From Candidatus Poriferihabitaceae bacterium (GTDB taxonomy: Bacteria; Pseudomonadota; Gammaproteobacteria; Arenicellales; Poriferihabitantaceae): 64,000 nt of DNA. A program made the position numbers and the translations under genes. Below are positions 2,633 to 57,134 of this stretch, one piece after another (within the stretch, counting starts at the first letter, position 1; each line of letters starts with the position of its first letter). The stretch lies in the NCBI GenBank assembly GCA_965203365.1, contig OZ241878.1:2502174-2566173 (forward strand), written 5' to 3'. The notes beneath the pieces are model-generated. The model saw only the letters and a program-made list of their open reading frames with translations, was not told the origin of the DNA and made no database searches.

Positions 2633-2671
2633 GGTCGGGGCCGACCACCGACGGCGGAAGGACCCGATGCC

Positions 2672-4589: not shown

Positions 4590-4597
4590 TCAAGTGT

Positions 4598-5970: not shown

Positions 5971-6080
5971 ATTCGGTCGCCGGGTGGGGAAACGGGGCCG
6001 GATCATCCCGAAGACGGGCCCCGAGCGACAAGGTGAAATGCCGTCGCCGGCTGATGGGATTTTGACGGACGGGGACGGAG

Positions 6081-6998
6081 TTACCGACCGCAATACAGGG
6101 CCACGATCTTGATGCGCTCGTGGCCCAGTTCTCGGCTGATGACCAGGCGGACGGTCTGGTCGATGGCCTGTTGTTCGACGGTGAGATCCCGGACTCGAGG
6201 CCCGTTCGCGGCCGGAGGCGGCCAACCAGCCAAGGCTTCATACCGCCGCTGGGCATAGGCGTGTCGCAGCCCATGCATGCGGGACAGTCCACTGCGCTGG
6301 AGCTCGCGATGATAGACTTTCAGTTGCTGGCGATAGTTCCGGGTACTGGGAATCAACGACCCCTTGCCGGCCAGCCGGTGCGCTGCGTCCAGGAGGGTAC
6401 GTTGCTGGTCGGTGATCACGGGGATGGTCCGGGCCTTCCCGCCCTTGGTCCAGCTGCCCCTGAGCCGGATGTGGTCGCCCTGGTCGGCGTACGAGGGCAT
6501 GAACTTGATCGACTCCTCCCGTCTCAGGCCAAAGGCCTGTTGCAACTTGAGGCTCATCCGCACTCTCGGGTCACGGATCGTGGCCAAGGTGGCGTCATCG
6601 ACGGTTTGGGCCTTGGAGACATTGGTCAGGTAACGTCGGTTGGGAATCCCGTAGAACGCATTGGATCGGGCCACCACACTGTCCCGGCCGACCTTGCGGG
6701 CCCACCAGCGGATGGCCGACATCCTGGGTTTGATGGTGCCGGCCGACAGTCCCTCCGCCAACCAACGCTGCACCAATGCCTCCACATGCTTGGGCTTGAG
6801 GGAGTGGATGCTCATGTGCCGGTATCCCAGTTCGTGCAGTTGATTGGCAATCAAGGTCAGGGTGCCTTGCCGGGCGGCCTGGGTGCCAAAGCCGCCGTCC
6901 CGGTTACGGCGGCACATCTGCTTGAGTTGGTAGTTCAGGTTTCTCACAGTGCAACCCAATCGGTTAGTGTTACTGACCAGACCGGTGGCCTGGGCCAT
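6081..6998 (-). CDS. Tyrosine recombinase / phage-integrase family protein
   Basis: 305 aa. Motifs HGLRHAYAQ and LGHERIKIVALY fit the H-x-x-R ... Y catalytic region. SAM-like N-terminal domain (LKPKHVEALVQRWL). Confidence 0.85.
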   Translation of the reverse strand: MAQATGLVSNTNRLGCTVRNLNYQLKQMCRRNRDGGFGTQAARQGTLTLIANQLHELGYRHMSIHSLKPKHVEALVQRWLAEGLSAGTIKPRMSAIRWWARKVGRDSVVARSNAFYGIPNRRYLTNVSKAQTVDDATLATIRDPRVRMSLKLQQAFGLRREESIKFMPSYADQGDHIRLRGSWTKGGKARTIPVITDQQRTLLDAAHRLAGKGSLIPSTRNYRQQLKVYHRELQRSGLSRMHGLRHAYAQRRYEALAGWPPPAANGPRVRDLTVEQQAIDQTVRLVISRELGHERIKIVALYCGR

Positions 6999-7558
6999 CC
7001 GGTCTCGCCGAAGCGCAGTGGTCGCGGGGCACCACTCCCTTCCACCTGAAGACTGTCTCGTTTAGACAACCCCGGTCGCTCCCGGTGGGGAGCCAAGCCG
7101 GAGTGGCCCAACCGGTCCTGACGGACCCGGGTCCAGGATGGCCGCTGGCCGCAGTGCAGATCGGGAGGCCACCGGGGGCAGGCGCCACCTCAGTGACTTC
7201 GGTGTCGGTGTCTCCAGTGGAAAACGGCGGCTGGGGATACCGGGCCATCAGGGGGGCCGTTTTCCGACAGGACCCACGACCGGAGTCGCCGCGCTTCACG
7301 GGGTCCGAGGGCGCGTTGGCCACAGGGATCCGCTGTGGCGGCGGTTGACATGGGGGGAGTATCCTGTGGCCGCCCGGTTCGGTCACGACAGAATCTCGAC
7401 CAATTCCGGCCGGGATTTTCGGGCGGAACCGGCCGCGGCGAGGTTTCCGCAAGACCCGCACCGCCGAAGAGCGCAGGGCTCTTCGGCGGCCGGGCGGGAG
7501 AATGGGTAGATTCCCGTTCTCCCGCGGTACAGACAACGAACGGAACCCGCGTCGGGCT

Positions 7559-21359: not shown

Positions 21360-21523
21360 GGATCCGAGCTTGCCCCAATGCGAACACGGGTGCCACAGAA
21401 AATCCGATCAGCCACTGACGGAATTGTCCCGATCCTTCTCCCCCCTTTCAACCTATGACACTTGTATCCAACCTCATTCTCGCTTTCTCTCACCTAGGGC
21501 ATCCCGTCCCAAGACCGCCCAGT

Positions 21524-22650
21524 TCAGTCGTTCAAGCCCCTGCCAGACCTGCTTCGCCCCCGGCAGCGGCGGGCTCTTCGACGGATGACTGCCCCCAGTC
21601 GGTCGAGATCGGTCACCCCGGGGCGGATGTGGGGCCCGGTCCGATTCGTCGGGGTCGGGGAATCCCGGACCGAGGGCGCGGACTCGTCGGTCGGGGGAGG
21701 ACTCGGCGAGACCGGACCGGATGGCGTCGGGACGGGCTGGTGGCCGGGTGCCCGCAGCCCGGGATGCAGCCCGTCGATCTCCTCCAGGTCAAAGACCACC
21801 GTCGCCGGCCCGTCAGGCTGCTCGCGGGCGAGGAACTTGTCGACCGTGCCGGTCATGCCCGTGTCGGGCACAGTGGTGGTGGTTCCGAACTTGGCCTTCA
21901 GCAGGGCCGTCGCCGTGAACGCGCCGCCCTCGCCCTTGCCGTCGAGCGGGTCGTGGATGGCATACTGGCCGACCACGGGTCCCTCGAAGGTCGCCCCGCC
22001 GCCGAGCAGGGCGTCGTCGTCCTCTCTCAACCACCAGCCGAAGTACGCAAAGTGATAATCGGGATGGATCACCCTGGCCCCCTCATCGTGAACGAACATC
22101 CAGTCGGCGTTGCTGGGGGTTTGCAGGAAGTAGCCGCCGGTCCCAACCCCGACATCGCAGGTGCCGGTGCCGGGAGTGCAGTAGTAGTAGCCGGGTGCGC
22201 CCCGGTAGGAGCCCCGGACCTGGATCTCCTCGGCTCCGTCTTTCGCCGGGAAGTTCAGGGTGCCCGACTCCGGGAACTCGGGGGAGTCGATGCTGTGGTC
22301 GATCCCGGTGCCCAGGGATATCCTGCGCTCCGCCGCGGTGTAGTCCCCCGCGTTGGCCGTGAAGCTGTCCTTGGCACCCTGATCAGGGAACCATTTCGCG
22401 ACCGGAATGGAGTTCGGCCCTGTCCGGTTGCTGTACACCTTGACCTTGTCGGTGAACTTCCCTTCGCCGGAGCCCTGGGTCCTCTCGTAGTCCGTGACCG
22501 TCCACACGCCGCCCACCTTCTCCTCGGCGTCTCTGGCCTCCTCCGTGCCGTGCCGGAAGCTCACCGCACCATGCTTGTCCGATGTCGCTCGCGACCCCAC
22601 CACCCGCCGCGGGATCAATCCGGAAGTCTCCCCGAGGCCGGTCCAGGGTG
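21524..22650 (-). pseudogene. SLP fragment beta4a (TbpB-like, 5'- and 3'-truncated, frameshifted)
   Basis: Matches beta1 from LDRPRGDFRIDPAAG to MTGTVDKF. A 1-nt insertion relative to beta1 occurs after RIDPAAG. No signal peptide, and the C-terminal barrel is replaced by unrelated sequence. Confidence 0.8.
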
Positions 22651-22833
22651 AAGAGGCCCTGTGAAGGATTCGACCGCAGCCTAACTTGTTCGCTCAAGGG
22701 TGTCAAAAACCTTGACACAACCTTGTTGCGCTGTTCCCCGGCGCAGGCTCCAAGCCGGGAAACCGCGTGTAGCCGCAAAGGACAGGAAAGTCAACAACCC
22801 CGGAGCTTCCGCTCGACAGCCAGCACCACCTCA

Positions 22834-22869
22834 TACAGCCTCGCCGAGGGTCGCATCGGCGAGGCTGTA
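22834..22869. other. Conserved hairpin in the alpha 3' flank (copy 1 of 4)
   Basis: tacagcctcgccga-gggtcgca-tcggcgaggctgta. No U-tract on either strand. Mirror copy at 26935-26970; other copies at 35511-35554 and 40765-40808. Confidence 0.6.
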
Positions 22870-22946
22870 CGAGAAAAGGGGGGGACGCCCGGCCTGGAAA
22901 GGAGAAGCCCACCGGCCGGGCGCCCGATCAGGGGTCAAGTCGATGG

Positions 22947-24665
22947 CTAGTCGTTGACGTTCTGTTTCGTGATGTTGCTCGCGCCGAACGCGCCGACCAG
23001 CCGATGGGTGGTGCTGTATTCGGAGTAGAAGGTTCCGAGGACCTTGTCCGCCTCGTCGCGGCCGTCGCCGCCATCCGCAACGGTTCCGGGCGTGGTGTCA
23101 AACAACCGGGCTTCCCAGCTGTTGAGAACCTCCGGCCCCTTGACGTCGCCGATCGACATGACCGTCTTGGTGCCCCTTCTGGTGACCCGGGTTCCGGTGC
23201 TCTGATCAAAGCCGCTTTTCATCAACTGCACGCTCCAGCCCGGATCCTCGGACCCGCCGTTCAGCCGAAACTCGTCGATCGTGCCGGACAGGCCCGCATC
23301 GCGCACATTGTCGGGGTCCCCGAACCGGGCCTTCAGCGTGGCCTTCGCCTCGAATGCGCCGCCCTCGCCCTCGCCGTTGCGCGGGTCGTGGATGGCGTAC
23401 TGGCCGACCGCGGGGCCCTCGAAGGTCGCCGAGCCGTTGTAATTTCTGGCGGACGAGGTGTTGTCATCAATCAAGCCCTCGTAGCCGAAAAAGGCGGTGG
23501 CCAGTCTGGGCACGTCGTCGCTGCTGTTCGATCTCACCCACCAGCCGAAGTACAGGTAGCTACTATCGGTGAGGGACACCTGGGCGCCCGGGTCGTGGAC
23601 GAACCTCCAGTCGCCATTACTGTTACCCATGGAGAGGCCGCCTCTATTCACCCGGACTTGGCAGTCGGTCTTGCAGTAATAGTAGCCGGGCGCCCCCTGG
23701 TAGGTGCCCCGCACCTTGACCTCCGAGGCTCCGTTTTTCGGAGCGAAGAGCTTGGTTCCGGCTGCCGGGAACTCGGGGGACGCAATGAGCGGATCGACAG
23801 CGAAGTTCAGGGACAGCGAGCGATTCTTCGCGGTGTAGGTCCCTGTAGTAGCCGGCTTGTCATCGGAGCCGAAGTGTGCCGCGGCATCCTTCTTCGTATT
23901 CTCCCCCCGATCGTTGTACACCCGGGCCCGGTCGGTGAACTCGGGCACCAACTGGCCCTCGGTCCGGATACCGTCGGTCTGGTCCGAGACCATCCAGTCG
24001 CCTACCTTCTTGACGGGTTTGACGGTCGTGAAGACCACCGGGGACTCGTTGGGGACGTAGACATCGTTGACCTCGGTGCTGATCGGCAAGTCCCCGCCGC
24101 CGTCCGTAGGATCGAGCTTGATGCCGGTCGGGTCTCCGGAATTCGACAGGCCCGTCTGAACGTCGGCCGCGTCTGCCAGGTTGTCCAGCGCGTTCTTGAC
24201 GGCTGCGGCGGTGGTGGTGCCAGGTACAAGCGGCCCGTCCAGCGCCGCAAACAGCGCCTTGCCCGTGGCGGCCATGGCCTTCTTCTCGGCGGCCGCCTTC
24301 CTCTGCATGGCGGCCGTGCGGGACGCCGTCTTTCCCTCAAGCGTGCCCTCGAGGTTCCCGAGCCGCTGGCTGAGGGCGGCCCGCTGCGCGGCAGGCACCT
24401 TGTCGACGGCCGCCTTGGCGGCCGCCACCTTCGCGTCGGCGTCCATGGTGTTTTCGGAGTCGTCCGTCACCAGGTCGACAGCCGTCTCCGCCTCATTGAG
24501 GGCCGTGGTCGCCGCGTCAGCAAGCTCCTTCGGGGTCATCTCGTTATCCGGGGGGGTCATCTCGTTATCCGGGGGCGTCACCGGACCGCTGCTGCCGCCC
24601 CCGCAGCCCGCCAAGGCCAACCCAGCGGCCAGCAAGACCGCCATTAAGACATTGTGTTTGTTCAT
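22947..24665 (-). CDS. Surface lipoprotein alpha1 (TbpB/fHbp-like, intact)
   Basis: Signal and lipobox MNKHNVLMAVLLAAGLALAG|C. Ala/Lys-rich helical region. YFGWW motif and C-terminal 8-strand-barrel signature GSATFEGPAVGQYA...GAFEAKATLKARFG...GTIDEF...WSV...GTFY...LVGAFGA. Confidence 0.85.
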   Translation of the reverse strand: MNKHNVLMAVLLAAGLALAGCGGGSSGPVTPPDNEMTPPDNEMTPKELADAATTALNEAETAVDLVTDDSENTMDADAKVAAAKAAVDKVPAAQRAALSQRLGNLEGTLEGKTASRTAAMQRKAAAEKKAMAATGKALFAALDGPLVPGTTTAAAVKNALDNLADAADVQTGLSNSGDPTGIKLDPTDGGGDLPISTEVNDVYVPNESPVVFTTVKPVKKVGDWMVSDQTDGIRTEGQLVPEFTDRARVYNDRGENTKKDAAAHFGSDDKPATTGTYTAKNRSLSLNFAVDPLIASPEFPAAGTKLFAPKNGASEVKVRGTYQGAPGYYYCKTDCQVRVNRGGLSMGNSNGDWRFVHDPGAQVSLTDSSYLYFGWWVRSNSSDDVPRLATAFFGYEGLIDDNTSSARNYNGSATFEGPAVGQYAIHDPRNGEGEGGAFEAKATLKARFGDPDNVRDAGLSGTIDEFRLNGGSEDPGWSVQLMKSGFDQSTGTRVTRRGTKTVMSIGDVKGPEVLNSWEARLFDTTPGTVADGGDGRDEADKVLGTFYSEYSTTHRLVGAFGASNITKQNVND

Positions 24666-24800
24666 CGTTCAGTTCATGTTAGCAGATTGATAATATTCAA
24701 GCGAAACAATTCAATGCGGATTCTAAACAGTGAGGAAACTCTGGCCAAGGGACACATCTACCGACCAGAATCGAACCTAAATCAGCAAATAAGAATCGAC

Positions 24801-25212: not shown

Positions 25213-26857
25213 TGGTCTGGCCCTGGCGGGCTGCGGTGGGGGCAGTTCGAATGATCCTCCCCCGCCGGCTCCGGGGCAGACGCTGGAGGCCGCGGCGGCG
25301 GAGGCCCTTGATGCGGCGAAGAAGGCTGTCGACCTGGTGACGGACGACTCCGAAAACACCATGGACGCCGACGCGAAGGTGGCGGCCGCCAAGGCGGCCG
25401 TCGACAAGGTGCCTGCCGCGCAGCGGGCCGCCCTCAGCCAGCGGCTCGGGAACCTCGAGGGCACGCTTGAGGGAAAGACGGCGTCCCGCACGGCCGCCAT
25501 GCAGAGGAAGGCGGCCGCCGAGAAGAAGGCCATGGCCGCCACGGGCAAGGCGCTGTTTGCGGCGCTGGACGGGCCGCTTGTACCTGGCACCACCACCGCC
25601 GCAGCCGTCAAGAACGCGCTGGACAACCTGGCGGCTGCGGCCGAGGTGCAGACGGGCCTGTCGAATTCCGGAGACCCGACCGGCATCAAGCTCGATCCTA
25701 CGGACGGCGGCGGGGACTTGCCGATCAGCACCGAGGTCAACGATGTCTACGTCCCCAACGAGTCCCCGGTGGTCTTCACGACCGTCAAACCCGTCAAGAA
25801 GGTAGGCGACTGGATGGTCTCGGACCAGACCGACGGTATCCGGACCGAGGGCCAGTTGGTGCCCGAGTTCACCGACCGGGCCCGGGTGTACAACGATCGG
25901 GGGGAGAATACGAAGAAGGATGCCGCGGCACACTTCGGCTCCGATGACAAGCCGGCTACTACAGGGACCTACACCGCGAAGAATCGCTCGCTGTCCCTGA
26001 ACTTCGCTGTCGATCCGCTCATTGCGTCCCCCGAGTTCCCGGCAGCCGGAACCAAGCTCTTCGCTCCGAAAAACGGAGCCTCGGAGGTCAAGGTGCGGGG
26101 CACCTACCAGGGGGCGCCCGGCTACTATTACTGCAAGACCGACTGCCAAGTCCGGGTGAATAGAGGCGGCCTCTCCATGGGTAACAGTAATGGCGACTGG
26201 AGGTTCGTCCACGACCCGGGCGCCCAGGTGTCCCTCACCGATAGTAGCTACCTGTACTTCGGCTGGTGGGTGAGATCGAACAGCAGCGACGACGTGCCCA
26301 GACTGGCCACCGCCTTTTTCGGCTACGAGGGCTTGATTGATGACAACACCTCGTCCGCCAGAAATTACAACGGCTCGGCGACCTTCGAGGGCCCCGCGGT
26401 CGGCCAGTACGCCATCCACGACCCGCGCAACGGCGAGGGCGAGGGCGGCGCATTCGAGGCGAAGGCCACGCTGAAGGCCCGGTTCGGGGACCCCAACAAT
26501 GTGCGCGATGCGGGCCTGTCCGGCACGATCGACGAGTTTCGGCTGAACGGCGGGTCCGAGGATCCGGGCTGGAGCGTGCAGTTGGTGAAAAGCCGCTTTG
26601 AGAGTGCCGGAAAAAAGGTCACCAGAAGAGGCACCAAGACGGTCATGTCGATCGGCGACGTCAAGGGGCCGGAGGTTCTCAACAGCTGGGAAGCCCGGTT
26701 GTTTGACACCACGCCCGGAACCGTTGCGGATGGCGGCGACGGCCGCGACGAGGCGGACAAGGTCCTCGGAACCTTCTACTCCGAATACAGCACCACCCAT
26801 CGGCTGGTCGGCGCGTTCGGCGCGAGCAACATCACGAAACAGAACGTCAACGACTAG
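25208..26857 (+). pseudogene. SLP alpha2 (promoterless, signal peptide truncated)
   Basis: The body is ~99% identical to alpha1 from codon 62 onward. Only ...STGLALAGCGGGSS remains of the signal peptide. An in-frame stop at 25163 leaves no start codon upstream. Confidence 0.8.
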
Positions 26858-28359
26858 CCATCGACTTGACCCCTGATCGGGCGCCCGGCCGGTGGGCTTC
26901 TCCTTTCCAGGCCGGGCGTCCCCCCCTTTTCTCGTACAGCCTCGCCGATGCGACCCTCGGCGAGGCTGTATGAGGTGGTGCTGGCTGTCGAGCGGAAGCT
27001 CCGGGGTTGTTGACTTTCCTGTCCTTTGCGGCTACACGCGGTTTCCCGGCTTGGAGCCTGCGCCGGGGAACAGCGCAACAAGGTTGTGTCAAGGTTTTTG
27101 ACACCCTTGAGCGAACAAGTTAGGCTGCGGTCGAATCCTTCACAGGGCCTCTTCACCCTGGACCGGCCTCGGGGAGACTTCCGGATTGATCCCGCGGCGG
27201 GTGGTGGGGTCGCGAGCGACATCGGACAAGCATGGTGCGGTGAGCTTCCGGCACGGCACGGAGGAGGCCAGAGACGCCGAGGAGAAGGTGGGCGGCGTGT
27301 GGACGGTCACGGACTACGAGAGGACCCAGGGCTCCGGCGAAGGGAAGTTCACCGACAAGGTCAAGGTGTACAGCAACCGGACAGGGCCGAACTCCATTCC
27401 GGTCGCGAAATGGTTCCCTGATCAGGGTGCCAAGGACAGCTTCACGGCCAACGCGGGGGACTACACCGCGGCGGAGCGCAGGATATCCCTGGGCACCGGG
27501 ATCGACCACAGCATCGACTCCCCCGAGTTCCCGGAGTCGGGCACCCTGAACTTCCCGGCGAAAGACGGAGCCGAGGAGATCCAGGTCCGGGGCTCCTACC
27601 GGGGCGCACCCGGCTACTACTACTGCACTCCCGGCACCGGCACCTGCGATGTCGGGGTTGGGACCGGCGGCTACTTCCTGCAAACCCCCAGCAACGCCGA
27701 CTGGATGTTCGTTCACGATGAGGGGGCCAGGGTGATCCATCCCGATTATCACTTTGCGTACTTCGGCTGGTGGTTGAGAGAGGACGACGACGCCCTGCTC
27801 GGCGGCGGGGCGACCTTCGAGGGACCCGTGGTCGGCCAGTATGCCATCCACGACCCGCTCGACGGCAAGGGCGAGGGCGGCGCGTTCACGGCGACGGCCC
27901 TGCTGAAGGCCAAGTTCGGAACCACCACCACTGTGCCCGACACGGGCATGACCGGCACGGTCGACAAGTTCCTCGCCCGCGAGCAGCCTGACGGGCCGGC
28001 GACGGTGGTCTTTGACCTGGAGGAGATCGACGGGCTGCATCCCGGGCTGCGGGCACCCGGCCACCAGCCCGTCCCGACGCCATCCGGTCCGGTCTCGCCG
28101 AGTCCTCCCCCGACCGACGAGTCCGCGCCCTCGGTCCGGGATTCCCCGACCCCGACGAATCGGACCGGGCCCCACATCCGCCCCGGGGTGACCGATCTCG
28201 ACCGACTGGGGGCAGTCATCCGTCGAAGAGCCCGCCGCTGCCGGGGGCGAAGCAGGTCTGGCAGGGGCTTGAACGACTGAACTGGGCGGTCTTGGGACGG
28301 GATGCCCTAGGTGAGAGAAAGCGAGAATGAGGTTGGATACAAGTTTAATATGTTGAAAG
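25325..28359. repeat. IR1 right arm
   Basis: See 21445-24482. Confidence 0.9.
27154..28280 (+). pseudogene. SLP fragment beta4b (mirror of beta4a)
   Basis: The 364-aa ORF translation is identical to 21524-22618. Confidence 0.8.
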
Positions 28360-29874: not shown

Positions 29875-30001
29875 GGCGTCAGGGGGCAATCGGAAAAAAA
29901 GGGGGGAACCGGGAGAAGATCCAGAATCGGGAAGGGGGGTGCCGGAAGTGCTCCCAGGGTCAGGCCGGGAACCGGGGCGGATTCCCGCCTGAACGGGTCG
30001 G

Positions 30002-31582
30002 CTACTCGTTGGTGTCCTTCACGCCGAAGGCACCGACCAGCCGGTGGGGGCTGCCGTACTCGGAGTAGACACTGGCGAGGATCAGGTCCGGCACAGTGTT
30101 GTTGGCTTTTTTCCGGGTATCGAAATACGTGGCGCCTTTCCACTAGCCGGACTCCTTCGCCGGGTTGCCGTTGATCGACCAGACGGTCCTGGCCGACGCA
30201 AGACTGTTACTGGTCGTGCCCGAGCCATATGCCGCTCTTTTCAACTCCACGCTCCAGCCCGAATCCGTGGATCCACCCTTCAGGCGGAACCCGTTGATCG
30301 TGCCGGTCACGCCCGCGTTCTCGACGACGGGGCTTCCGACGGTGTTCCCGAAAATAGCGTTCAGCGTGACGTCTGCCGTGAAGGCGCCGCCGTCGCTGTC
30401 CTCTCTCACCCAGCAGCCGAAGTAGTAGAAGGTCTTATCGGTCACGGTCACTTGGGCACCCTCGTCGTACTGGAAGATCCATTTCTCCAACAGGGGATAG
30501 GCATCGTCCTTGGTATTTTCAACAATTCCGACCTTCAATTCAACCGTGCAGTCGCCAGCGGTGGCGGATGTGCAGCGATAGTTGCCTGGGGCACCCTGAT
30601 AGGTGCCCTGGATGCTGACGACGTTGGTTTCCGTATCCTTCGGCGAATCGAAGTCCGTCTTCCCCGCTGTCGGGAACCCGTCGGACTGGATGTGGATATC
30701 TTCTTTGGTGGCCATATCCCCGTCATGCTTCAGAGGCAGCGTCATCGCAGCCGCATCATGGTTTCCCGCGTTGGGCGGTCGGTCTGTACCCGCGAAGTGT
30801 TTCGCCGCATCCACCTCCATATTCTTCCAGTTGGAGTAGATCCTGGCCCAGTCGGTGACAGTGGAGTAGGTGGAGGGGGCTTCGTTGCCGGTTGGGGTGT
30901 TGGTGAGCCCAGTGCGCCGGTAGTCCGTGACCATCCAGGGAGACCCCTTTCCCACCGACCGGGGTGCCCCGACCGGATCAAGGGCCTTCGTCTTGTGGGT
31001 GCCGAGTGCTTTATCCTTGTCGTCGAGCGGCATCGACCCCGCGCCGTCCACGGGATTGACCTCCAGCTGAGGGAGGCCGACCTCAAGGACCTTGCTCCCG
31101 TCAGTGCCCGTGGCCTTGAGGCGAAAGTCTTGCTCAATGTTGTTCAGCGCGGTCAGGTTGGTCTGGGCACTGCCGTCCGAGTCCTTGGGCCCGGCCAGCG
31201 CCGCAAACATCGCCTTGCTGGTGGCGACGTTCTTGGCCTTCATGGCGGTCGTGCGCGACTCCTTCGCTTCGTTAAGCATGCCCACGAGGTTCCCGAGCTG
31301 CTGGCTGAGGGCGGCCCGCTGCGCAACTGGCACCTTGTTGACGGCCGTCCGGGCCGCCGCCAGCTTCGTATCGGCGTCGGTGACCTTGGCGTCATCGGCA
31401 GTGTCCGTCACCGCCTCGACGGCGGTCTTCGCCGCCGCGGCCCGTTGCGCCGGGGTTTGGGTCATGGTGCCATCGCCATCATTGTTCGTATTCGGGATGG
31501 TACTGTTGTTGCCGCCGCCGCAGCCAGCCAAAGTCAGCAAGGCGGCCAGCAGGACAGTCATCAAGAGATTGGGAGTGTTCAT
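30002..31582 (-). pseudogene. SLP gamma (TbpB-like) with a single in-frame TAG
   Basis: MNTPNLLMTVLLAALLTLAG|C lipobox. TAG at 30143-30145 sits where paralogs have Ser/Asn (GSW/NSW/GNW). The same frame continues for 46 codons, WKGATYFDT...VYSEYGSPHRLVGAFGVKDTNE, to a TAG at 30002-30004. Confidence 0.8.
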
Positions 31583-31746
31583 CGTTCGGTTCACGTTGAT
31601 GTTGGCAGAATGAGTGGTTGGATGCCCGGGGGGTTGGATGCGGGGGCACTGCGGCCAGCGAGCGGACCCGCTGGCCGAAGCCCAACGCTCAACACCAATC
31701 TGCCTAGCATCGTGAAGGCCGTCGCCGGGGGGCGACGGACGCAGGG

Positions 31747-31775
31747 ACTATAAAACGAGGGGGGGGGTGGGTCAA
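31747..31775 (-). promoter_or_regulatory. Putative gamma promoter with a C9 tract in the spacer
   Basis: On the minus strand: TTGACC (31770-31775), a 17-nt spacer (ca, C9, tcgttt), then TATAGT (31747-31752). Confidence 0.5.
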
Positions 31776-31877
31776 CCCCTGGCGGCCCTTTTTTCCGTCC
31801 GGCCGAAGGGTCATCGGTTTTAGGGGACCTTCCCCTAGGATGCGGGATGTTACCAGCATCTCGGCGATCTAGGGTAG

Positions 31878-32075
31878 TGTCTGGCAGAAAACGCCTCTTT
31901 TTCGGGCGACCCGGCTCGGTCCGTCGCCAGTTCCCCAAGCAAAACAATAGGCAATATCTATAAAATAAGAGAATCTGATCGAATTTCCCGATGACCGGCC
32001 GAGACCATCCCACTTGGGGTCCTTGCTGACTCGATTTTGTCAAAATGCGCCCACAGGTCTCCCCACCCTGACCCA
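31878..32075 (-). repeat. 198-bp IS-end-like repeat R2 (copy a)
   Basis: Inverted copy of 52075-52272. Ends in ...TTTTCTGCCAGACA. Lies directly after a transposase C-terminal remnant. Confidence 0.7.
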
Positions 32076-32118
32076 TCGGTCAGGGGAGGTTGATACCGGA
32101 AAGGGGAGTCAACGACCG

Positions 32119-32209
32119 TCAGGCCGCTTTTCTTCGTCGGCGCTCGGCCTCCCGCAGCTGGCGACGCAGCAACCAGCCCAATCAATGGAGATTGAACGCC
32201 AGCATCGAC
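32119..32209 (-). mobile_element. Transposase C-terminal remnant
   Basis: SMLAFNLH*LGWLLRRQLREAERRRRKAA*, paralogous to 33380-33440. Confidence 0.45.
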
Positions 32210-32849: not shown

Positions 32850-33038
32850 ATGGTGGCGTCGATCAGAGCGCTGGCCTCATCCTCGCAAGGGATTTCGTAC
32901 TACGAGCGGGACGGGTACTACGCCAGGGACGATCCGGAACACAAGGCCGCCAGCACCTGGGTGGGCAAGGGCGCGGCGGACCTCGGCCTGCAGGCCCGGT
33001 GGATTCCGGCGTGTTCCAGTCGGTTTCGGCAGCGCCTT
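32850..33038 (+). pseudogene. MOBF (TrwC/TraI-like) relaxase N-terminal fragment
   Basis: MVASIRALASSSQGISYYERDGYYARDDPEHKAASTWVGKGAADLGLQ matches the relaxase N-terminal pattern S..A..YY....DYY........W.GKGA..LGL. A frameshift occurs at ~32995 and the fragment is truncated at ~33038. Confidence 0.5.
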
Positions 33039-33254: not shown

Positions 33255-33440
33255 GCCGCCCGGCAGCAGCATCCGGCGGTGGAATCCGCGATCAACCATC
33301 GGGAGCACCGGGGATTGGATCGGGTCAGGACGCCTGGTGCTGAGGGCTTTGCCCGCACCGGGGCCGGGTCGATGCGGGCGTTCAATCTCCATCGATTGGG
33401 GGGGTTGCTGCGTCGCCGGATGCGGGAGGCCGAGCGCTGA
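33255..33440 (+). mobile_element. Transposase C-terminal remnant
   Basis: HPAVESAINHREHRGLDRVRTPGAEGFARTGAGSMRAFNLHRLGGLLRRRMREAER*. TGA at 33438-33440. Confidence 0.45.
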
Positions 33441-33444
33441 CGAA

Positions 33445-35094
33445 GGCGAGATGACCCCGCCGCCTCCGGGGCTGACGCTGGAGGCCGCGGCGAAGACGGC
33501 TGTCGGCATGGTGACGGACGACTCTGACGCCGCGGCGGTCACCGACGCCGAGAAGAAGGTGGCGGCCGCCAAGGCGGCCGTCGACAAGGTGCCTGCCGCG
33601 CAGCGGAACGCCCTCATCCGGCGGCTCGGGAACCTCGAGGGCAAGCTTGGGGGAAAGACGGCGTCCCGCACGGCCGCCATGGCGATGAAGGCGAAGGCCA
33701 TGGTTGCCCGCGGCAAGGCGCTGCTCGGGGCGATGACGAAGCCCGATGGTGACGACAAGACGGTGCTGGACAATCTCGAGAGCGATCCTGTCTACAACGA
33801 CCTCCTCGTCGATGATGCGACGTACGATGACGGTGCCCGCAAGGCCGTCCGGGCGAAAAACTACCTGGACCGGCCTCGGGGAGACTTCCGGATTGATCCT
33901 GCGGCGGGTGCGGGGTCGCGAGCGACGTCGGATCTGCATGGTGCGGTGAGCTTCCGGCACGGCACGGAGGAGGCCAGGGACGCCGAGGAGAAGGTGGACG
34001 GCGTGTGGACGGTCACGGACTACGTGAGGACCCAGGGCTCTGGCGAAGGGAAGTTCACCGACAAGGTCAAGGTGTACAGCGACCGGACGGGGCCGAACTC
34101 CATTCCGGCCGCGAAATGGTTCTCTGATTCGGGTGCCAAGGCCTCCTACACGGCCAACGCGGGGACCTACACCCCGGCGGAACGCAGGATATCCCTGAAC
34201 ACCGGGACCGACCACAGCATCGACTCCCCCGATTTCCCGGAGACGGGCACCAAGCCCTTCGCTCCGACAGACGGAGCCGATGAGGTCCAGGTCCGGGGCT
34301 CCTACCGGGGGGCGCCCGGCTACTACTACTGCACCCCCGGCACCAGTGAATCCTGCACGGTCGGGGTCGGGCAAATCGGCTACTTCCTGAGCGCCGGCTG
34401 GACGTTCGTCCATGACGAGGGGGCCATGGTGATCCACCCCGATACTGACTTTGCGTACTTCGGCTGGTGGTTGAGAGAGGACGACGACGGCCTGCCCGCG
34501 GCGGTCGCCCCCTTCTACGCCACCAGAGGCGGCGGCGTCGGGATCACCTCGGACGGCAACAGCCTGATCGGCGGCGAGGCGACCTTCGAGGGTCCCGCAG
34601 TCGGCCAGTATGCCATCCACGACCCGCTCGACGGCAAGGGCGAGGGCGGCGCGTTCACGGCGACGGCCCTGCTGAAGGCCAAGTTCGGAGCCAGCAACTT
34701 GGTGCCCGACACGGGCATGACCGGCACGGTCGACAAGTTCCGCCTGGAAAACGGGTCCGAGCCGAACTGGAGCGTGACGCTGAACAGGGGTGGCCCTGGC
34801 AGCACCCCTGCTTCGGATAATCGAGGCGGATGGAGGGCTGGCGCCAAGACGGACCCCGCCGCCAAGACGGTCTGGTCGATCGATGGCAACAAGGCGCTGG
34901 CGGCCGGCAGCTGGGTTGCCACGATGTATGATGAAACGCCCGATTTGCCCACGGTTGCCAGTGGCGGTATCACCAAACCGGTCGGCGACGGCAACAACAA
35001 TCCGACCCTGGTGCTCGGAAAGTTCCATGCCGAATACGGCGGCACCCACCGACTGGTCGGCGCCTTCGGCGCGAAGAGGGTTGTTGAAGAGTAG
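33445..35094 (+). pseudogene. SLP beta2 (promoterless, no signal peptide)
   Basis: Nearly identical to beta1 at a 4130-bp offset (33620-35111). The N-terminus is replaced by an IS remnant and there is no lipobox. Confidence 0.8.
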
Positions 35095-35104
35095 GAGCAG
35101 CCAT

Positions 35105-35458
35105 CGAACGGACCGGGGTGTGAAGCTCGAACTACGGGCCGGTTTCGTCGGTCTCGTCCCGCCCGCCGACCGGCCGACGGACACGCCACCCCTGCGGCTG
35201 CTTGCCGTGCGGGTGCGGGAACCCGAGCCGCCGGCCGGGAAGGAATCGCTCGACTGGCTGCTGCTGACGACCGAGGGTGAACCCCCCGCCGGGAACGCAC
35301 TGCGCGTCGCCGGGTGGTACGAGAAGCGGTGGCTGATCGAGGAATGGTTCCGCGCCCTGAAGACCGGCACGCGGATCAAGGACCGTCGGCTCAATGCCGC
35401 CGACAGCCTGTGCTGCTGCCTCGCCTTCGACGCGATCACGGCCTGCACCGTGATGTCG
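35105..35458 (+). mobile_element. Tn5-like IS4 transposase fragment (C-terminal catalytic region)
   Basis: LDWLLLTTEGEPPAGNALRVAGWYEKRWLIEEWFRALKTGTRIKDRRL compares with Tn5 LKWLLLTSEPVESLAQALRVIDIYTHRWRIEEFHKAWKTGAGAERQRM. Confidence 0.7.
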
Positions 35459-35510
35459 AAGGACAGGAAAGTCAACAACCCCGGAGCTTCCGCTCGACAG
35501 CCAGCACCAC

Positions 35511-35554
35511 CTCGTACAGCCTCGCCGAGGGTCGCATCGGCGAGGCTGTACGAG
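35511..35554. other. 18-bp perfect-stem hairpin in the alpha 3' flank
   Basis: ctcgtacagcctcgccga-gggtcgca-tcggcgaggctgtacgag. Confidence 0.6.
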
Positions 35555-35653
35555 AAAAGGGGGAACGCCCGGCCTGGAAAGGAGAAGCCAACCGGCCCGG
35601 GCGCCCGATCAGGGGTCAGGGAACGGCACCACCTGCCCCCCTCCGTTTGATGG

Positions 35654-36917
35654 CTATTCGTTGACGTTCTGTTTCGTGATGTTGCTCGCGCCGAACGCGC
35701 CGACCAGCCGATGGGTGGTGCTGTATTCGGAGTAGAAGGTTCCGAGGATCTTGTCCGCCTCGTTGGAGCCGTCGCCGCCGTCCGCAACGGTTCCGGGCGT
35801 GGTGTCAAACAACCGGGCGTCCCAGCTGTTGAGAACCTCCGGCCCCTTGAAGTCGCCGATCGACATGACCGTCTTGGTGCCTCTTCTGGTGACCTTTTTT
35901 CCGGCACTCTCAAAGCGGCTTTTCACCAACTGCACGCTCCAGCCCGGATCCTCGGACCCGCCGTTCAGCCGAAACTCGTCGATCGTGCCGGACAGGCCCG
36001 CATCGCGCACATTGTTGGGGTCCCCGAACCGGGCCTTCAGCGTGGCCTTCGCCTCGAATGCGCCGCCCTCGCCCTCGCCGTTGCGCGGGTCGTGGATGGC
36101 GTACTGGCCGACCGCGGGGCCCTCGAAGGTCGCGGAGCCGTCGTAATCGCGGGCGCTCGTAGTTTTGCCTTCCTCCAGAGTGACGCCCTCGAAGCCGAAA
36201 AAGGCGGTGGCCAGTCTGGGCACGTCGTCGCTGCTGTTCGATCTCACCCACCAGCCGAAATACAGGTAGTCGGAATCAGGGAGGGACACCTGGGCGTCCG
36301 GGTCGTGGACGAACCTCCAGCCGGCATACAGGCTGATGCCGCCTCTTCTCACCTGGACTTGGCAGTCGGTCTTGCAGTAATAGTAGCCGGGCGCCCCCTG
36401 GTAGGTGCCCCGCACCTTGACCTCCGAGGCTCCGTCTGTCGGCTCGAAGGTATGGCTTCCGGCTCCCTGCACCGGGAACTCGGGGGACGCAATGCGCGGA
36501 TCGACAGCGAAGTTCAGGGACAGCGAGCGATTCTTCGCGGTGTAGGTCCCTGTAGTAGCCGGCTTGTCATCGGAGCCGAAGTGTGCCGCGGCATCCTTCT
36601 TCGTATTCTCCCCCCGATCGTTGTACACCCGGGCCCGGTCGGTGAACTCGGGCACCAACTGGCCCTCGGTCCGGATACCGTCGGTCTGGTCCGAGACCAT
36701 CCAGTCGCCTACCTTCTTGACGGGTTTGACGGTCGTGAAGACCACCGGGGACTCGTTGGGGACGTCGACATCGTTGACTTTGGTGCTGATCGGCAAGTCC
36801 CCGCCGCCGTCCGTAGGATCGAGCTTGATGCCGGTCGGGTCTCCGGAATTCGACAGGCCCGTCTGAACGTCGGCCGCGTCTGCCAGGTTGTCCAGCGCGT
36901 TCTTGACGGCTGCGGCG
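35654..36917 (-). pseudogene. SLP alpha3 (5'-truncated cassette with variant central block)
   Basis: Homology to alpha1 begins at ...NALDNLADAADVQTG (breakpoint ~36917). No signal peptide or promoter. The central block differs (VQGAGSHTFEPTDG...GVTLEEGKTTSARDYDGS). Confidence 0.8.
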
Positions 36918-37301: not shown

Positions 37302-37331
37302 TTGAAGTGGTGGGATTTAACGATGTATAAT
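37302..37331 (+). promoter_or_regulatory. Putative beta1 promoter
   Basis: TTGAAG (37302-37307), an 18-nt spacer, then TATAAT (37326-37331). Lies in the AT-rich module 37173-37466, an exact mirror of 24666-24959. Confidence 0.5.
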
Positions 37332-37466: not shown

Positions 37467-39224
37467 ATGAACAAACACAATGTCTTAATGGCGGTCTTGC
37501 TGGCCGCTGGGTTGGCCTTGGCGGGCTGCGGGGGCGGCAGCAGCGATCCGGTGACGCCCCCGGATAACGAGATGACCCCGAAGGAGCTTGCTGACGCGGC
37601 GACCACGGCCCTCAATGAGGCGGAGACGGCTGTCGGCATGGTGACGGACACGGCCGATGACGCCAAGGTCACCGCCGCCGACGCGAAGGTGGCGGCCGCC
37701 AAGGCGGCCGTCGACAAGGTGCCTGCCGCGCAGCGGGCCGCCCTCAGCCAGCGGCTCGGGAACCTCGAGGGCAAGCTTGGGGGAAAGACGGCGTCCCGCA
37801 CGGCCGCCATGGCGATGAAGGCGAAGGCCATGGTTGCCCGCGGCAAGGCGCTGCTCGGGGCGATGACGAAGCCCGATGGTGACGACAAGACGGTGCTGGA
37901 CAATCTCGAGAGCGATCCTGTCTACAACGACCTCCTCGTCGATGATGCGACGTACGATGACGGTGCCCGCAAGGCCGTCCGGGCGAAAAACTACCTGGAC
38001 CGGCCTCGGGGAGACTTCCGGATTGATCCTGCGGCGGGTGCGGGGTCGCGAGCGACGTCGGATCTGCATGGTGCGGTGAGCTTCCGGCACGGCACGGAGG
38101 AGGCCAGGGACGCCGAGGAGAAGGTGGACGGCGTGTGGACGGTCACGGACTACGTGAGGACCCAGGGCTCTGGCGAAGGGAAGTTCACCGACAAGGTCAA
38201 GGTGTACAGCGACCGGACGGGGCCGAACTCCATTCCGGCCGCGAAATGGTTCTCTGATTCGGGTGCCAAGGCCTCCTACACGGCCAACGCGGGGACCTAC
38301 ACCCCGGCGGAACGCAGGATATCCCTGAACACCGGGACCGACCACAGCATCGACTCCCCCGATTTCCCGGAGACGGGCACCAAGCCCTTCGCTCCGACAG
38401 ACGGAGCCGATGAGGTCCAGGTCCGGGGCTCCTACCGGGGGGCGCCCGGCTACTACTACTGCACCCCCGGCACCAGTGAATCCTGCACGGTCGGGGTCAG
38501 GCAAATCGGCTACTTCCTGAGCGCCGGCTGGACGTTCGTCCATGACGAGGGGGCCATGGTGATCCACCCCGATACTGACTTTGCGTACTTCGGCTGGTGG
38601 TTGAGAGAGGACGACGACGGCCTGCCCGCGGCGGTCGCCCCCTTCTACGCCACCAGAGGCGGCGGCGTCGGGATCACCTCGGACGGCAACAGCCTGATCG
38701 GCGGCGAGGCGACCTTCGAGGGTCCCGCAGTCGGCCAGTATGCCATCCACGACCCGCTCGACGGCAAGGGCGAGGGCGGCGCGTTCACGGCGACGGCCCT
38801 GCTGAAGGCCAAGTTCGGAGCCAGCAACTTGGTGCCCGACACGGGCATGACCGGCACGGTCGACAAGTTCCGCCTGGAAAACGGGTCCGAGCCGAACTGG
38901 AGCGTGACGCTGAACAGGGGTGGCCCTGGCAGCACCCCTGCTTCGGATAATCGAGGCGGATGGAGGGCTGGCGCCAAGACGGACCCCGCCGCCAAGACGG
39001 TCTGGTCGATCGATGGCAACAAGGCGCTGGCGGCCGGCAGCTGGGTTGCCACGATGTATGATGAAACGCCCGGTTTGCCCACGGTTGCCAGTGGCGGTAT
39101 CACCAAACCGGTCGGCGACGGCAACAACAATCCGACCCTGGTGCTCGGAAAGTTCCATGCCGAATACGGCGGCACCCACCGACTGGTCGGCGCCTTCGGC
39201 GCGAAGAGGGTTGTTGAAGAGTAG
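37467..39224 (+). CDS. Surface lipoprotein beta1 (TbpB/fHbp-like, intact)
   Basis: 585 aa with the same signal and lipobox as alpha1. YFGWWLRED motif and barrel signature GEATFEGPAVGQYA...GAFTATALLKAKFG...GTVDKF...WSV...GKFH...LVGAFGA. Confidence 0.85.
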   Translation: MNKHNVLMAVLLAAGLALAGCGGGSSDPVTPPDNEMTPKELADAATTALNEAETAVGMVTDTADDAKVTAADAKVAAAKAAVDKVPAAQRAALSQRLGNLEGKLGGKTASRTAAMAMKAKAMVARGKALLGAMTKPDGDDKTVLDNLESDPVYNDLLVDDATYDDGARKAVRAKNYLDRPRGDFRIDPAAGAGSRATSDLHGAVSFRHGTEEARDAEEKVDGVWTVTDYVRTQGSGEGKFTDKVKVYSDRTGPNSIPAAKWFSDSGAKASYTANAGTYTPAERRISLNTGTDHSIDSPDFPETGTKPFAPTDGADEVQVRGSYRGAPGYYYCTPGTSESCTVGVRQIGYFLSAGWTFVHDEGAMVIHPDTDFAYFGWWLREDDDGLPAAVAPFYATRGGGVGITSDGNSLIGGEATFEGPAVGQYAIHDPLDGKGEGGAFTATALLKAKFGASNLVPDTGMTGTVDKFRLENGSEPNWSVTLNRGGPGSTPASDNRGGWRAGAKTDPAAKTVWSIDGNKALAAGSWVATMYDETPGLPTVASGGITKPVGDGNNNPTLVLGKFHAEYGGTHRLVGAFGAKRVVEE

Positions 39225-39881: not shown

Positions 39882-40665
39882 AGACGGAGCCTCGGAGGTC
39901 AAGGTGCGGGGCACCTACCAGGGGGCGCCCGGCTACTATTACTGCAAGACCGACTGCCAAGTCCAGGTGAGAAGAGGCGGCATCAGCCTGTATGCCGGCT
40001 GGAGGTTCGTCCACGACCCGGACGCCCAGGTGTCCCTCCCTGATTCCGACTACCTGTATTTCGGCTGGTGGGTGAGATCGAACAGCAGCGACGACGTGCC
40101 CAGACTGGCCACCGCCTTTTTCGGCTTCGAGGGCGTCACTCTGGAGGAAGGCAAAACTACGAGCGCCCGCGATTACGACGGCTCCGCGACCTTCGAGGGC
40201 CCCGCGGTCGGCCAGTACGCCATCCACGACCCGCGCAACGGCGAGGGCGAGGGCGGCGCATTCGAGGCGAAGGCCACGCTGAAGGCCCGGTTCGGGGACC
40301 CCAACAATGTGCGCGATGCGGGCCTGTCCGGCACGATCGACGAGTTTCGGCTGAACGGCGGGTCCGAGGATCCGGGCTGGAGCGTGCAGTTGGTGAAAAG
40401 CCGCTTTGAGAGTGCCGGAAAAAAGGTCACCAGAAGAGGCACCAAGACGGTCATGTCGATCGGCGACTTCAAGGGGCCGGAGGTTCTCAACAGCTGGGAC
40501 GCCCGGTTGTTTGACACCACGCCCGGAACCGTTGCGGACGGCGGCGACGGCTCCAACGAGGCGGACAAGATCCTCGGAACCTTCTACTCCGAATACAGCA
40601 CCACCCATCGGCTGGTCGGCGCGTTCGGCGCGAGCAACATCACGAAACAGAACGTCAACGAATAG
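39882..40665 (+). pseudogene. SLP alpha4 (3' cassette fragment, mirror of the alpha3 C-terminal 260 aa)
   Basis: Starts at ...DGASEVKVRGTYQGAPGYYYCKTDC, fused to IS-derived sequence. Confidence 0.8.
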
Positions 40666-40860
40666 CCATCAAACGGAGGGGGGCAGGTGGTGCCGTTCCC
40701 TGACCCCTGATCGGGCGCCCGGGCCGGTTGGCTTCTCCTTTCCAGGCCGGGCGTTCCCCCTTTTCTCGTACAGCCTCGCCGATGCGACCCTCGGCGAGGC
40801 TGTACGAGGTGGTGCTGGCTGTCGAGCGGAAGCTCCGGGGTTGTTGACTTTCCTGTCCTT

Positions 40861-41214
40861 CGACATCACGGTGCAGGCCGTGATCGCGTCGAAGGCGAGG
40901 CAGCAGCACAGGCTGTCGGCGGCATTGAGCCGACGGTCCTTGATCCGCGTGCCGGTCTTCAGGGCGCGGAACCATTCCTCGATCAGCCACCGCTTCTCGT
41001 ACCACCCGGCGACGCGCAGTGCGTTCCCGGCGGGGGGTTCACCCTCGGTCGTCAGCAGCAGCCAGTCGAGCGATTCCTTCCCGGCCGGCGGCTCGGGTTC
41101 CCGCACCCGCACGGCAAGCAGCCGCAGGGGTGGCGTGTCCGTCGGCCGGTCGGCGGGCGGGACGAGACCGACGAAACCGGCCCGTAGTTCGAGCTTCACA
41201 CCCCGGTCCGTTCG
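40861..41214 (-). mobile_element. Tn5-like IS4 transposase fragment (mirror copy)
   Basis: Translation identical to 35105-35458. Confidence 0.7.
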
Positions 41215-41224
41215 ATGGCTGCTC

Positions 41225-42552
41225 CTACTCTTCAACAACCCTCTTCGCGCCGAAGGCGCCGACCAGTCGGTGGGTGCCGCCGTATTCGGCATGGAACTTT
41301 CCGAGCACCAGGGTCGGATTGTTGTTGCCGTCGCCGACCGGTTTGGTGATACCGCCACTGGCAACCGTGGGCAAATCGGGCGTTTCATCATACATCGTGG
41401 CAACCCAGCTGCCGGCCGCCAGCGCCTTGTTGCCATCGATCGACCAGACCGTCTTGGCGGCGGGGTCCGTCTTGGCGCCAGCCCTCCATCCGCCTCGATT
41501 ATCCGAAGCAGGGGTGCTGCCAGGGCCACCCCTGTTCAGCGTCACGCTCCAGTTCGGCTCGGACCCGTTTTCCAGGCGGAACTTGTCGACCGTGCCGGTC
41601 ATGCCCGTGTCGGGCACCAAGTTGCTGGCTCCGAACTTGGCCTTCAGCAGGGCCGTCGCCGTGAACGCGCCGCCCTCGCCCTTGCCGTCGAGCGGGTCGT
41701 GGATGGCATACTGGCCGACTGCGGGACCCTCGAAGGTCGCCTCGCCGCCGATCAGGCTGTTGCCGTCCGAGGTGATCCCGACGCCGCCGCCTCTGGTGGC
41801 GTAGAAGGGGGCGACCGCCGCGGGCAGGCCGTCGTCGTCCTCTCTCAACCACCAGCCGAAGTACGCAAAGTCAGTATCGGGGTGGATCACCATGGCCCCC
41901 TCGTCATGGACGAACGTCCAGCCGGCGCTCAGGAAGTAGCCGATTTGCCCGACCCCGACCGTGCAGGATTCACTGGTGCCGGGGGTGCAGTAGTAGTAGC
42001 CGGGCGCCCCCCGGTAGGAGCCCCGGACCTGGACCTCATCGGCTCCGTCTGTCGGAGCGAAGGGCTTGGTGCCCGTCTCCGGGAAATCGGGGGAGTCGAT
42101 GCTGTGGTCGGTCCCGGTGTTCAGGGATATCCTGCGTTCCGCCGGGGTGTAGGTCCCCGCGTTGGCCGTGTAGGAGGCCTTGGCACCCGAATCAGAGAAC
42201 CATTTCGCGGCCGGAATGGAGTTCGGCCCCGTCCGGTCGCTGTACACCTTGACCTTGTCGGTGAACTTCCCTTCGCCAGAGCCCTGGGTCCTCACGTAGT
42301 CCGTGACCGTCCACACGCCGTCCACCTTCTCCTCGGCGTCCCTGGCCTCCTCCGTGCCGTGCCGGAAGCTCACCGCACCATGCAGATCCGACGTCGCTCG
42401 CGACCCCGCACCCGCCGCAGGATCAATCCGGAAGTCTCCCCGAGGCCGGTCCAGGTAGTTTTTCGCCCGGACGGCCTTGCGGGCACCGTCATCGTACGTC
42501 GCATCATCGACGAGGAGGTCGTTGTAGACAGGATCGCTCTCGAGATTGTCCA
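41225..42552 (-). pseudogene. SLP beta3 (5'-truncated cassette)
   Basis: Identical to beta2 from DNLESDPVYNDLL to the stop. The 5' end is cut by an IS30-like end at 42552/42553. Confidence 0.8.
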
Positions 42553-51758: not shown

Positions 51759-52074
51759 GAGGGAAATTATAGACCATCCGCTCCGGCCCAACAAGCCTCG
51801 GCCAAGTCGTCTCCCGGCCGGTCCGTCGCGACCCGGTCGACCGTCATTCGCCCCATCCCGGGGCTGTCATTGACCCCCACCTGACAAATGGTCAGGGAGG
51901 GGGATCCCGGAGCCGGGGTTTCATGGCCGGGTACATGACCGTGGAGTGCCTCAGCAACCCCATGGCCTGCCAGAGTTTCGCCGCGCCGGGCAGCGGCGGG
52001 CGTTGGGAGGGATGAACCCCGATCCGCCGGGCGAGGTCGACCACGCCGGTCGCCAAGGAGAGGGGGTTATCCGG

Positions 52075-52272
52075 TGGGTCAGGGTGGGGGGGGCTGTGGG
52101 CGCATTGTGGCAAAATCGGGTCAGCAGGGACCCCAAGGGGGATGGTCTCGGCCGGTCATCGGGAAATTCGATCAGATTCTCTTGTTTTATAGAGATTGCC
52201 TATTGTTTTGCTGGGGGAACTGGCGACGGACCGAGCCGGGTCGCCCGAAAAAGAGGCGTTTTCTGCCAGACA
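52075..52272 (+). repeat. 198-bp IS-end-like repeat R2 (copy b)
   Basis: Inverted copy of 31878-32075. Abuts the stop codon of the second DUF1640 gene. Confidence 0.7.
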
Positions 52273-56948: not shown

Positions 56949-56972
56949 TTGACAGGAGGGGGGGGGTACAGT
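56949..56972 (+). promoter_or_regulatory. Putative delta promoter with a G9 tract in the spacer
   Basis: TTGACA (56949-56954), gga plus G9 (56958-56966) giving a 12-nt spacer, then TACAGT (56967-56972). Confidence 0.45.
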
Positions 56973-57134
56973 TGCCGGTCAGTCTGCCCGAACGGTTGAA
57001 CGCAGGGCGGCTGATCAAGCGATGCAATGCAGGTTGGTGTTTGGGTTCGGCCAGGGGGTGCACCCCCTGGCCGGGTTCCCGGGCAGCCGGACCGGCAGGG
57101 CCTCGGAATACCAAATCTGCAACGTGAACTGAAC

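Follow-up and report, generated by a model that had tools for sequence, protein, structure and literature searches.

Does the promoter-like sequence that precedes gamma, a surface-lipoprotein (SLP) gene, act as a working sigma-70 promoter whose output is set by the run of nine C residues in its spacer, and which gene would such a promoter serve? The question arises because gamma is directly followed, on the same strand, by a gene encoding a Slam protein (DUF560/PF04575). It was addressed in the window, i.e., the whole stretch of 64,000 nucleotides that was analysed, for which an earlier note had described this promoter and two others of the same kind, delta and delta'. The coordinates of the features are collected in Table 1.

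Anatomy of the gamma promoter and its odds by chance

By direct reading, the minus-strand context is gggTTGACC-ca-CCCCCCCCC-tcgttt-TATAGTccc, and the consensus scan returns the same -35 hexamer, C9-containing 17-nt spacer and -10 hexamer on the gene strand, which confirms the initial description. The claim of an optimal spacing stands as well, as the site matches the sigma-70 type strongly, has a 17-nt spacer and stands at the right place and in the right orientation before gamma. The -10 hexamer ends 165 nt from the gamma ATG (31582), in agreement with the approximately 160 nt that had been put forward, and this distance is similar to that found for delta and delta', whose promoters each lie 163 nt from their own ATG. 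The site has the anatomy of a contingency promoter, with a homopolymer between recognisable -35 and -10 hexamers (10/12 positions) and a 17-nt spacer. As the C9 run takes up 9 of these 17 positions, adding or removing a C changes the distance between the two hexamers. The A6 run found further upstream is placed as a putative UP element would be. The segment 31705-31877, which contains the promoter, is unique in the window and among all fetched loci.

Table 1. Features of the gamma-Slam locus, comparator promoters and large repeats, in window coordinates
Feature	Position	Strand	Remark
A6 run, about 50 nt upstream of the predicted start	31789..31794	minus	read from sequence
-35 hexamer TTGACC, 5/6 to TTGACA	31775-31770	minus	read from sequence and consensus scan
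17-nt spacer CACCCCCCCCCTCGTTT, i.e., CA-CCCCCCCCC-TCGTTT	31769-31753	minus	
C9 homopolymer CCCCCCCCC (G9 on the plus strand)	31767-31759	minus	candidate slippage tract
-10 hexamer TATAGT, 5/6 to TATAAT	31752-31747	minus	
Predicted 5' leader, about 158 nt	31740..31583	minus	start predicted near 31740
Perfect palindrome CCGTCGCC-CCCC-GGCGACGG, just past the -10	31738-31719	minus	
Leader hairpin GGCCAGCGGG-TCCG-CTCGCTGGCC	31676-31653	minus	
Gamma ORF as it stands, 479 aa, lipobox LAGC	31582..30143	minus	lacks about 50 aa, premature TAG
Gamma remainder past the TAG, WKGATYFD...YSEYGSPHRLVGAFGVKDTNE	30142..30002	minus	no longer translated; barrel strands 6-8 of the family
Ancestral gamma-Slam intergenic region, C-rich, T7 at end	30001..29875	minus	no canonical intrinsic terminator
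Slam gene, 445 aa	29874-28537	minus	PF04575 SlipAM (E = 9.7e-21) and TPR_Slam
Delta promoter TTGACA-GGA-G9-TACAGT, spacer 12	56949-56972	plus	comparator
Delta' promoter, hexamers and flanks as in delta, G20, spacer 23	62035-62001	minus	comparator
TTGAAG-18-TATAAT	24830-24801	minus	at least 10/12, before SLP gene starting at 24665 (minus)
TTGAAG-18-TATAAT	37302-37331	plus	at least 10/12, before SLP gene starting at 37467 (plus)
Inverted repeat	33767-36437 / 39882-42552		100%
Inverted repeat	21445-23203 / 26601-28359		99%
Inverted repeat	23206-24525 / 25282-26601		98%

Promoter-like sites were defined as matches to the E. coli-type sigma-70 consensus at 9/12 or more positions of the two hexamers. 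Chance was estimated from first-order Markov simulations of a 64-kb sequence of 64.1% GC, 200 simulated windows being used for the combination of promoter and run. Between 28 and 34 kb, two matches are found on both strands together (0.8 expected in shuffles), the gamma promoter being the sole one on the minus strand and the only one at 10/12. In the whole window, 11 sites score at least 9/12 (9.1 expected) and three at least 10/12 (0.74 expected). Each of the latter three precedes a lipobox SLP gene on its own strand, at a distance of 130-165 nt, and the E. coli-type consensus thus looks meaningful in this organism. It is also a reasonable model in view of PurL: this protein is of the single-chain type, and the named sequences nearest to it come from Arenicellales and other Gammaproteobacteria MAGs. 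An alphaproteobacterial host, considered at first, was rejected for this reason and because the SLP/Slam genes lie beside ICE genes.

The C9 run, taken alone, is ordinary for a window of 64% GC: four G/C runs of at least 9 are present vs. 4.9 +/- 2.1 per 64 kb simulated, and run counts drop about 3-fold with each extra base, as composition predicts. Among the runs, the C20 alone far exceeds chance. The combination of the C9 run with a promoter spacer is, in contrast, not ordinary but rare by chance, since a promoter-like site with a run of at least 9 in its spacer occurs twice in 200 simulated windows. Three of the four runs of the window are in SLP promoter spacers, and all four appear outside genes. 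The remaining one is a further C9 (51327-51335), just past the stop of its neighbouring gene; together with a C8 (50900-50907), it is apparently non-coding and lies downstream of a second, short copy of a coiled-coil gene (51760-51398).

In known systems, G/C tracts are unstable from a length of about 7-9 or more (PMC5084427, PMC3639595), and C9 is long enough by this range, which comes from other organisms. The delta and delta' promoters, which the earlier note had reported to contain a spacer run as well, both exist, one with G9 and the other with G20, their hexamers being unlike those of gamma. Their flanks, including both hexamers, are identical, and the tracts differ by 11 G, which indicates that tract length has changed in this lineage. 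This difference between paralogous promoters would be the only internal, and indirect, sign of slippage. Both spacers are far from 17 nt, a length that G14 would give, and both genes are thus predicted to be OFF. Intact delta and delta' have off-spaced promoters, whereas the decayed gamma has an in-phase one.

Between its predicted start and the ATG, the gamma leader folds at -74 kcal/mol (z = -3.9 vs. shuffles), and homology with the delta and delta' leaders extends over its last 130 nt or so. The palindrome just past the -10 could be either a 5'-terminal stabilising RNA hairpin or an operator. The leaders of delta and delta' have retained the second hairpin, its stem sequences being different there (GGCCAGGGGGTGCACCCCCTGGCC and GGCCAGGGTGTGCACACCTTGGCC). 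A scan for a Fur box near gamma gave a best match of 12/19, no better than background. The SLP genes of the window are devoid of a Shine-Dalgarno sequence and share AACGTGAAC(T/C)GAAC(G)ATG (31583-31600, 57115-57134, 24668-24690), unlike their relatives, which carry a strong AAAGGAGAAGGGTTC ahead of the ATG.

Decay of gamma and Slam as the probable payload

The gamma product starts with MNTPNLLMTVLLAALLTLAGC followed by GGG, and its signal peptide and lipobox cysteine are present. The rest of the gene was aligned with four paralogues of the window and with the closest outside homologue, P0002 (48% identity). An in-frame TAG is found at 30145-30143, where P0002 has a Ser, 46 codons before the conserved C-terminal motif of the family, YSEYG..HRLVGAFG, which can still be read in the gamma frame, where the ancestral stop follows at 30004-30002. 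Between WVREDSD and GGAFTADV, about 50 aa are cleanly deleted, and a W has become a C at a column without variation among 25 family members. Altogether, 11 of the 37 family-invariant columns are missing from the gamma product.

The structural consequences of these lesions were mapped on an AlphaFold model of the intact paralogue 37467-39224 (mean pLDDT 80.6, pTM 0.76), in which a helical domain at the N-terminus, a beta handle and, at the C-terminus, eight strands can be distinguished, and whose best, though weak, PDB matches are to the TbpB C-lobe (prob 0.92-0.99, E about 2e-3). The deletion takes out barrel strand 1 and the TAG strands 6-8, so that gamma, compared with this model, is without a complete C-terminal eight-stranded barrel. 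As such a barrel is common to all predicted Slam-dependent SLPs (PMC5449769), gamma is best read, from alignment and model, as a decaying member of the SLP family and not as a functional one. With these strands lost, the product that the cell obtains from the promoter would most likely be Slam rather than gamma.

Slam matches PF04575 over residues 156-447 (285 of 288 profile positions) and PF24575 (TPR_Slam) over residues 78-127, the latter with a score below the cut-off, and it has 1792 homologues at E <= 1e-30. It is the sole Slam of the 64-kb window. The consensus scan finds no site of at least 9/12 between gamma and Slam that could be an own Slam promoter, and no canonical intrinsic terminator was found there. 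As Slam is single and is preceded by neither a promoter-like site of its own nor a terminator, it is probably the functional payload of the C9 promoter. At least four intact SLP paralogues are present in the window, among them those at 24665-22947 and 37467-39224, and these would need a translocon. The optimal spacing maintained before a dead SLP gene would fit selection on Slam expression.

The claim that gamma and Slam are transcribed together is therefore to be kept in part: it is in line with their common strand and with the region between them, but gamma can no longer be counted as an intact SLP. The 127-bp gap given for the two genes has to be revised, as it was counted from the ancestral stop, which is a second TAG, and so reads through the first; the real untranslated gap is 268 nt.

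Related loci and known contingency promoters

In protein searches, the closest non-self matches share 76% identity with Slam, 48% with gamma and 73% with PurL. Scanning genome contigs (GTDB) with Slam only retrieved relatives at about 71% identity (at most 72%), in two 'Alphaproteobacteria' MAGs. Look-ups of the exact products of gamma (from either possible start), of Slam and of the paralogue P0005 returned no record, and the only match of a metagenome pattern scan, run with the promoter flanks and a gap of variable length, was AT-rich and due to chance. The SLP promoters in the loci of the two MAGs are free of G/C runs of at least 8, the only such run being a C11 far upstream in L001. The region upstream of P0002 is without a similar promoter and without a tract, and no G/C run of at least 7 occurs in the 13 kb retrieved for the four further SLP-Slam loci L016-L019. 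The SLP promoter regions of the fetched relatives, in which the promoter is either a fixed one, TTGACA-16-TACACT, or that of an upstream porin, thus contain no G/C tract of similar length. As the related loci have fixed, tract-free promoters, the spacer tracts are not a family trait and would be derived in this lineage. Common descent of the gamma and delta promoters with the fixed promoter of the relatives was considered and not retained: the hexamer types are shared, but the homology of the alignment is unconvincing.

The order SLP then Slam, with both genes on a common strand, is shared by 17 related loci. In L016-L019, the operon is made of Porin_4 (PF13609), SLP and Slam, in that order (genes at about 2300-7350); a homologue of this porin partner was searched for in the window and is absent. 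Several relatives have a strong intrinsic terminator, AAGGGTGGCGC...GCGCCACCCTT followed by T8, between the SLP stop and the Slam ATG (L006, 5905-5952; also L008, L009, L011 and L013). Ending about 40 nt before the Slam ATG, it leaves little room for a separate promoter, which implies attenuated read-through and suggests that this terminator may set a low Slam:SLP ratio. In the window, the gamma-Slam region retains T7 only, and the stem of the relatives' terminator is gone. In L015, from the genome with the closest gamma homologue, a C14 (3183-3196) and a C21 (5335-5355) flank a transposase pair (DDE_Tnp_1; DruA with DDE_Tnp_1_assoc).

Several known systems can be compared with the gamma promoter. 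The promoter of opc in Neisseria meningitidis reportedly contains a poly-C on whose length expression depends, as described by Sarkari et al. (1994; cited in PMC5084427). The opc tract has a length of about 10-15, and gonococcal fetA has a poly-C in its promoter spacer, with tract-length-dependent expression. Gamma is like both in that its promoter, too, has a poly-C on the coding strand, and unlike opc in that its C9 is shorter. It also resembles porA of N. meningitidis, an outer-membrane/surface protein gene with a G/C tract of 9-11 in its sigma-70 spacer. The porA poly-G is located between the -35 and the -10, and expression is high with 11 G, about 2-fold lower with 10 G and about 13-fold lower with 9 G (PMC3639595). 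In view of this graded expression, modulation rather than a clean ON/OFF is the expected behaviour, and a slip of one C in either direction at C9 would, by analogy, lower the output of the gamma promoter and not switch it off. Gamma nevertheless differs from porA in several respects: its host is a deep-branching, uncharacterised gammaproteobacterium and not a host-restricted Neisseria, and the first gene is decayed, the likely payload being the export machine Slam and not an antigen.

The hpuAB locus of pathogenic Neisseria, which encodes a Slam2-dependent SLP and has a poly-G tract (PMC7857515, PMC5472700), is likewise an SLP/Slam-linked locus with a simple-sequence repeat. The hpuA tract is, however, in the reading frame and confers a translational ON/OFF (PMC7857515), whereas the gamma tract is in a promoter spacer and would confer transcriptional volume control. 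As in the pairs of a TbpB-like SLP and an adjacent Slam (Hooda et al., 2017; PMC5449769), a lipobox gene adjoins a DUF560/PF04575 Slam, and the intact paralogue is modelled with a C-terminal barrel whose best matches are TbpB C-lobes. Unlike TbpB-like SLPs, gamma is devoid of barrel strands 1 and 6-8, and the family of the window has a long N-terminal helical domain and no Pfam SLP domain match. Altogether, the gamma promoter appears to be a well-formed, unverified example of a known mechanism, the porA/opc-type spacer tract.

A possibly tunable promoter, rival readings and the surrounding cluster

The reading that we tentatively prefer, with a chance a little short of even, is that of a working sigma-70 promoter in which C9 acts as a graded and reversible volume control of the porA/opc type, the product being mostly Slam. 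An RpoD-type sigma-70 would start a transcript near 31740, and this transcript would comprise the structured leader, the decayed gamma and then, by read-through, Slam. Replication slippage, provided that it occurs at a useful rate, would add or remove one C, leading to a spacing of 16 or 18 nt and to a weaker promoter, and further slips would lead to a poorly active one. By analogy with porA, output could be maximal with C9 (17 nt), intermediate with C8 or C10 and low beyond. In this assembly, the tract would be set at the optimum spacing.

Several points go against this explanation. The first downstream gene is a pseudogene-like relic, amid repeats and ICE remnants, and the promoter could be a relic too. 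Rho-dependent polarity might set in over the 268 nt of C-rich RNA that stay untranslated ahead of Slam. In a finished assembly whose chemistry is unspecified, homopolymers may be miscounted by one. Finally, C9 occurs at chance frequency, and related loci have fixed promoters and no such tracts. This last point would also suit a promoter that is real but fixed, with constitutive expression of gamma and Slam, C9 being a mere C-rich spacer that slips too rarely and is not selected. The exactly optimal spacing is what would be expected if selection keeps Slam on, and the frequency of G/C runs of at least 9 and the fixed promoters of the relatives point in the same direction. We nevertheless consider a fixed promoter rather unlikely: a run of at least 9 in a promoter-like spacer is rare in the simulations, two more SLP promoters of the window have tracts at the same position, with G9 vs. 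G20, and G/C runs of 9 nt are within the phase-variable range of Neisseria (general knowledge and PMC5084427).

That the site is a relic or a chance match, with hexamers that drive no meaningful transcription and a Slam gene that is either silent or expressed from an unrecognised promoter, would agree with the nonsense codon, the 50-aa deletion and the W-to-C change of gamma, with the absence of the porin partner present upstream of SLP in four related loci, with the upstream DNA, made of a 202-nt repeat and a relaxase fragment, and with the nine or so promoter-like sites expected per window at the lower threshold. It is made improbable by the rarity of 10/12 matches, all three of which precede SLP genes, by the intact Slam ORF with its full-length Pfam matches, by the at least four intact SLP paralogues that would need Slam, no other Slam being nearby, and by the conserved hairpin retained in the leader. 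The length of the tract might also be an assembly artefact, in which case the true tract is not of nine and the 17-nt, ON configuration is wrong even if promoter and slippage are real. That the assembly is a single contig of 3.70 Mb (3,699,958 bp) and contains 2.7-kb inverted repeats of 100% identity implies long reads, some chemistries of which are prone to homopolymer errors; the C20 of the window is especially hard to call. However, reading frames are intact across the C7/G7 runs of long conserved genes (PurL at 47133 and 47507; TraD at 2070), so that the homopolymer consensus quality looks good, and we give an artefact very little credit.

A bolder form of the preferred, tunable promoter would make it the sole driver of the sole Slam serving the SLP cluster, the dead gamma ORF acting as a long leader and slippage tuning the display of all SLPs; this form is, in our opinion, distinctly improbable. 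If true, it would place a phase-variable export machine above the per-gene tract switches of delta and delta' and above possible cassette recombination, and it would mean phase-variable Slam export in a non-pathogen, deep-branching gammaproteobacterium. If the tract slips at all, contingency-promoter control would be extended beyond the host-restricted pathogens in which it is textbook knowledge, with a switch placed before a translocon and not before an antigen, in the SLP/Slam setting of a poorly sampled gammaproteobacterium.

The surrounding cluster is more unusual than the promoter. It combines paralogous promoters that carry tracts, SLP copies that have no promoter and duplications that form near-perfect palindromes. 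The SLP cluster (21445-42552) is made of very large, near-perfect inverted repeats. It contains two full lipobox genes and at least seven SLP-homologous segments without lipobox or start (for example 25412-26821 and 33406-35088 on the plus strand, 36829-35690 and 42313-41231 on the minus strand), which look like silent cassettes or possible substrates for recombination-driven variation. As the named relatives of the Slam family are 'Alphaproteobacteria' MAGs, the SLP/Slam cluster may have been acquired horizontally. ICE genes (TraD TIGR03754, PFGI-1-type ParB TIGR03764 and TIGR03755) occupy 1-21 kb, directly beside the cluster, and purL and dapA come after it, at 44.5-49.9 kb. Scans for Rfam families and tRNAs gave no hit in the window.

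The 202-nt repeat located just upstream of the gamma promoter (31878-32079) is 94% identical to an inverted copy at 52071-52272. The latter is just 3' of a coiled-coil gene (53461-52274; PF07798 and GFA) rich in tandem repeats of multiples of 33 nt, and it carries a G8 (52086-52093) where the gamma copy reads GGGGAGAC. Beyond the repeat, a fragment of the N-terminus of a TrwC-type relaxase (MVASIRALASSSQGISYYERDGYY..., 32850-33000, plus strand) is flanked by a short inverted repeat (32150-32200 and 33370-33430), one arm of which has a G7 (33398-33404), and the right arm of which adjoins a promoterless SLP copy.
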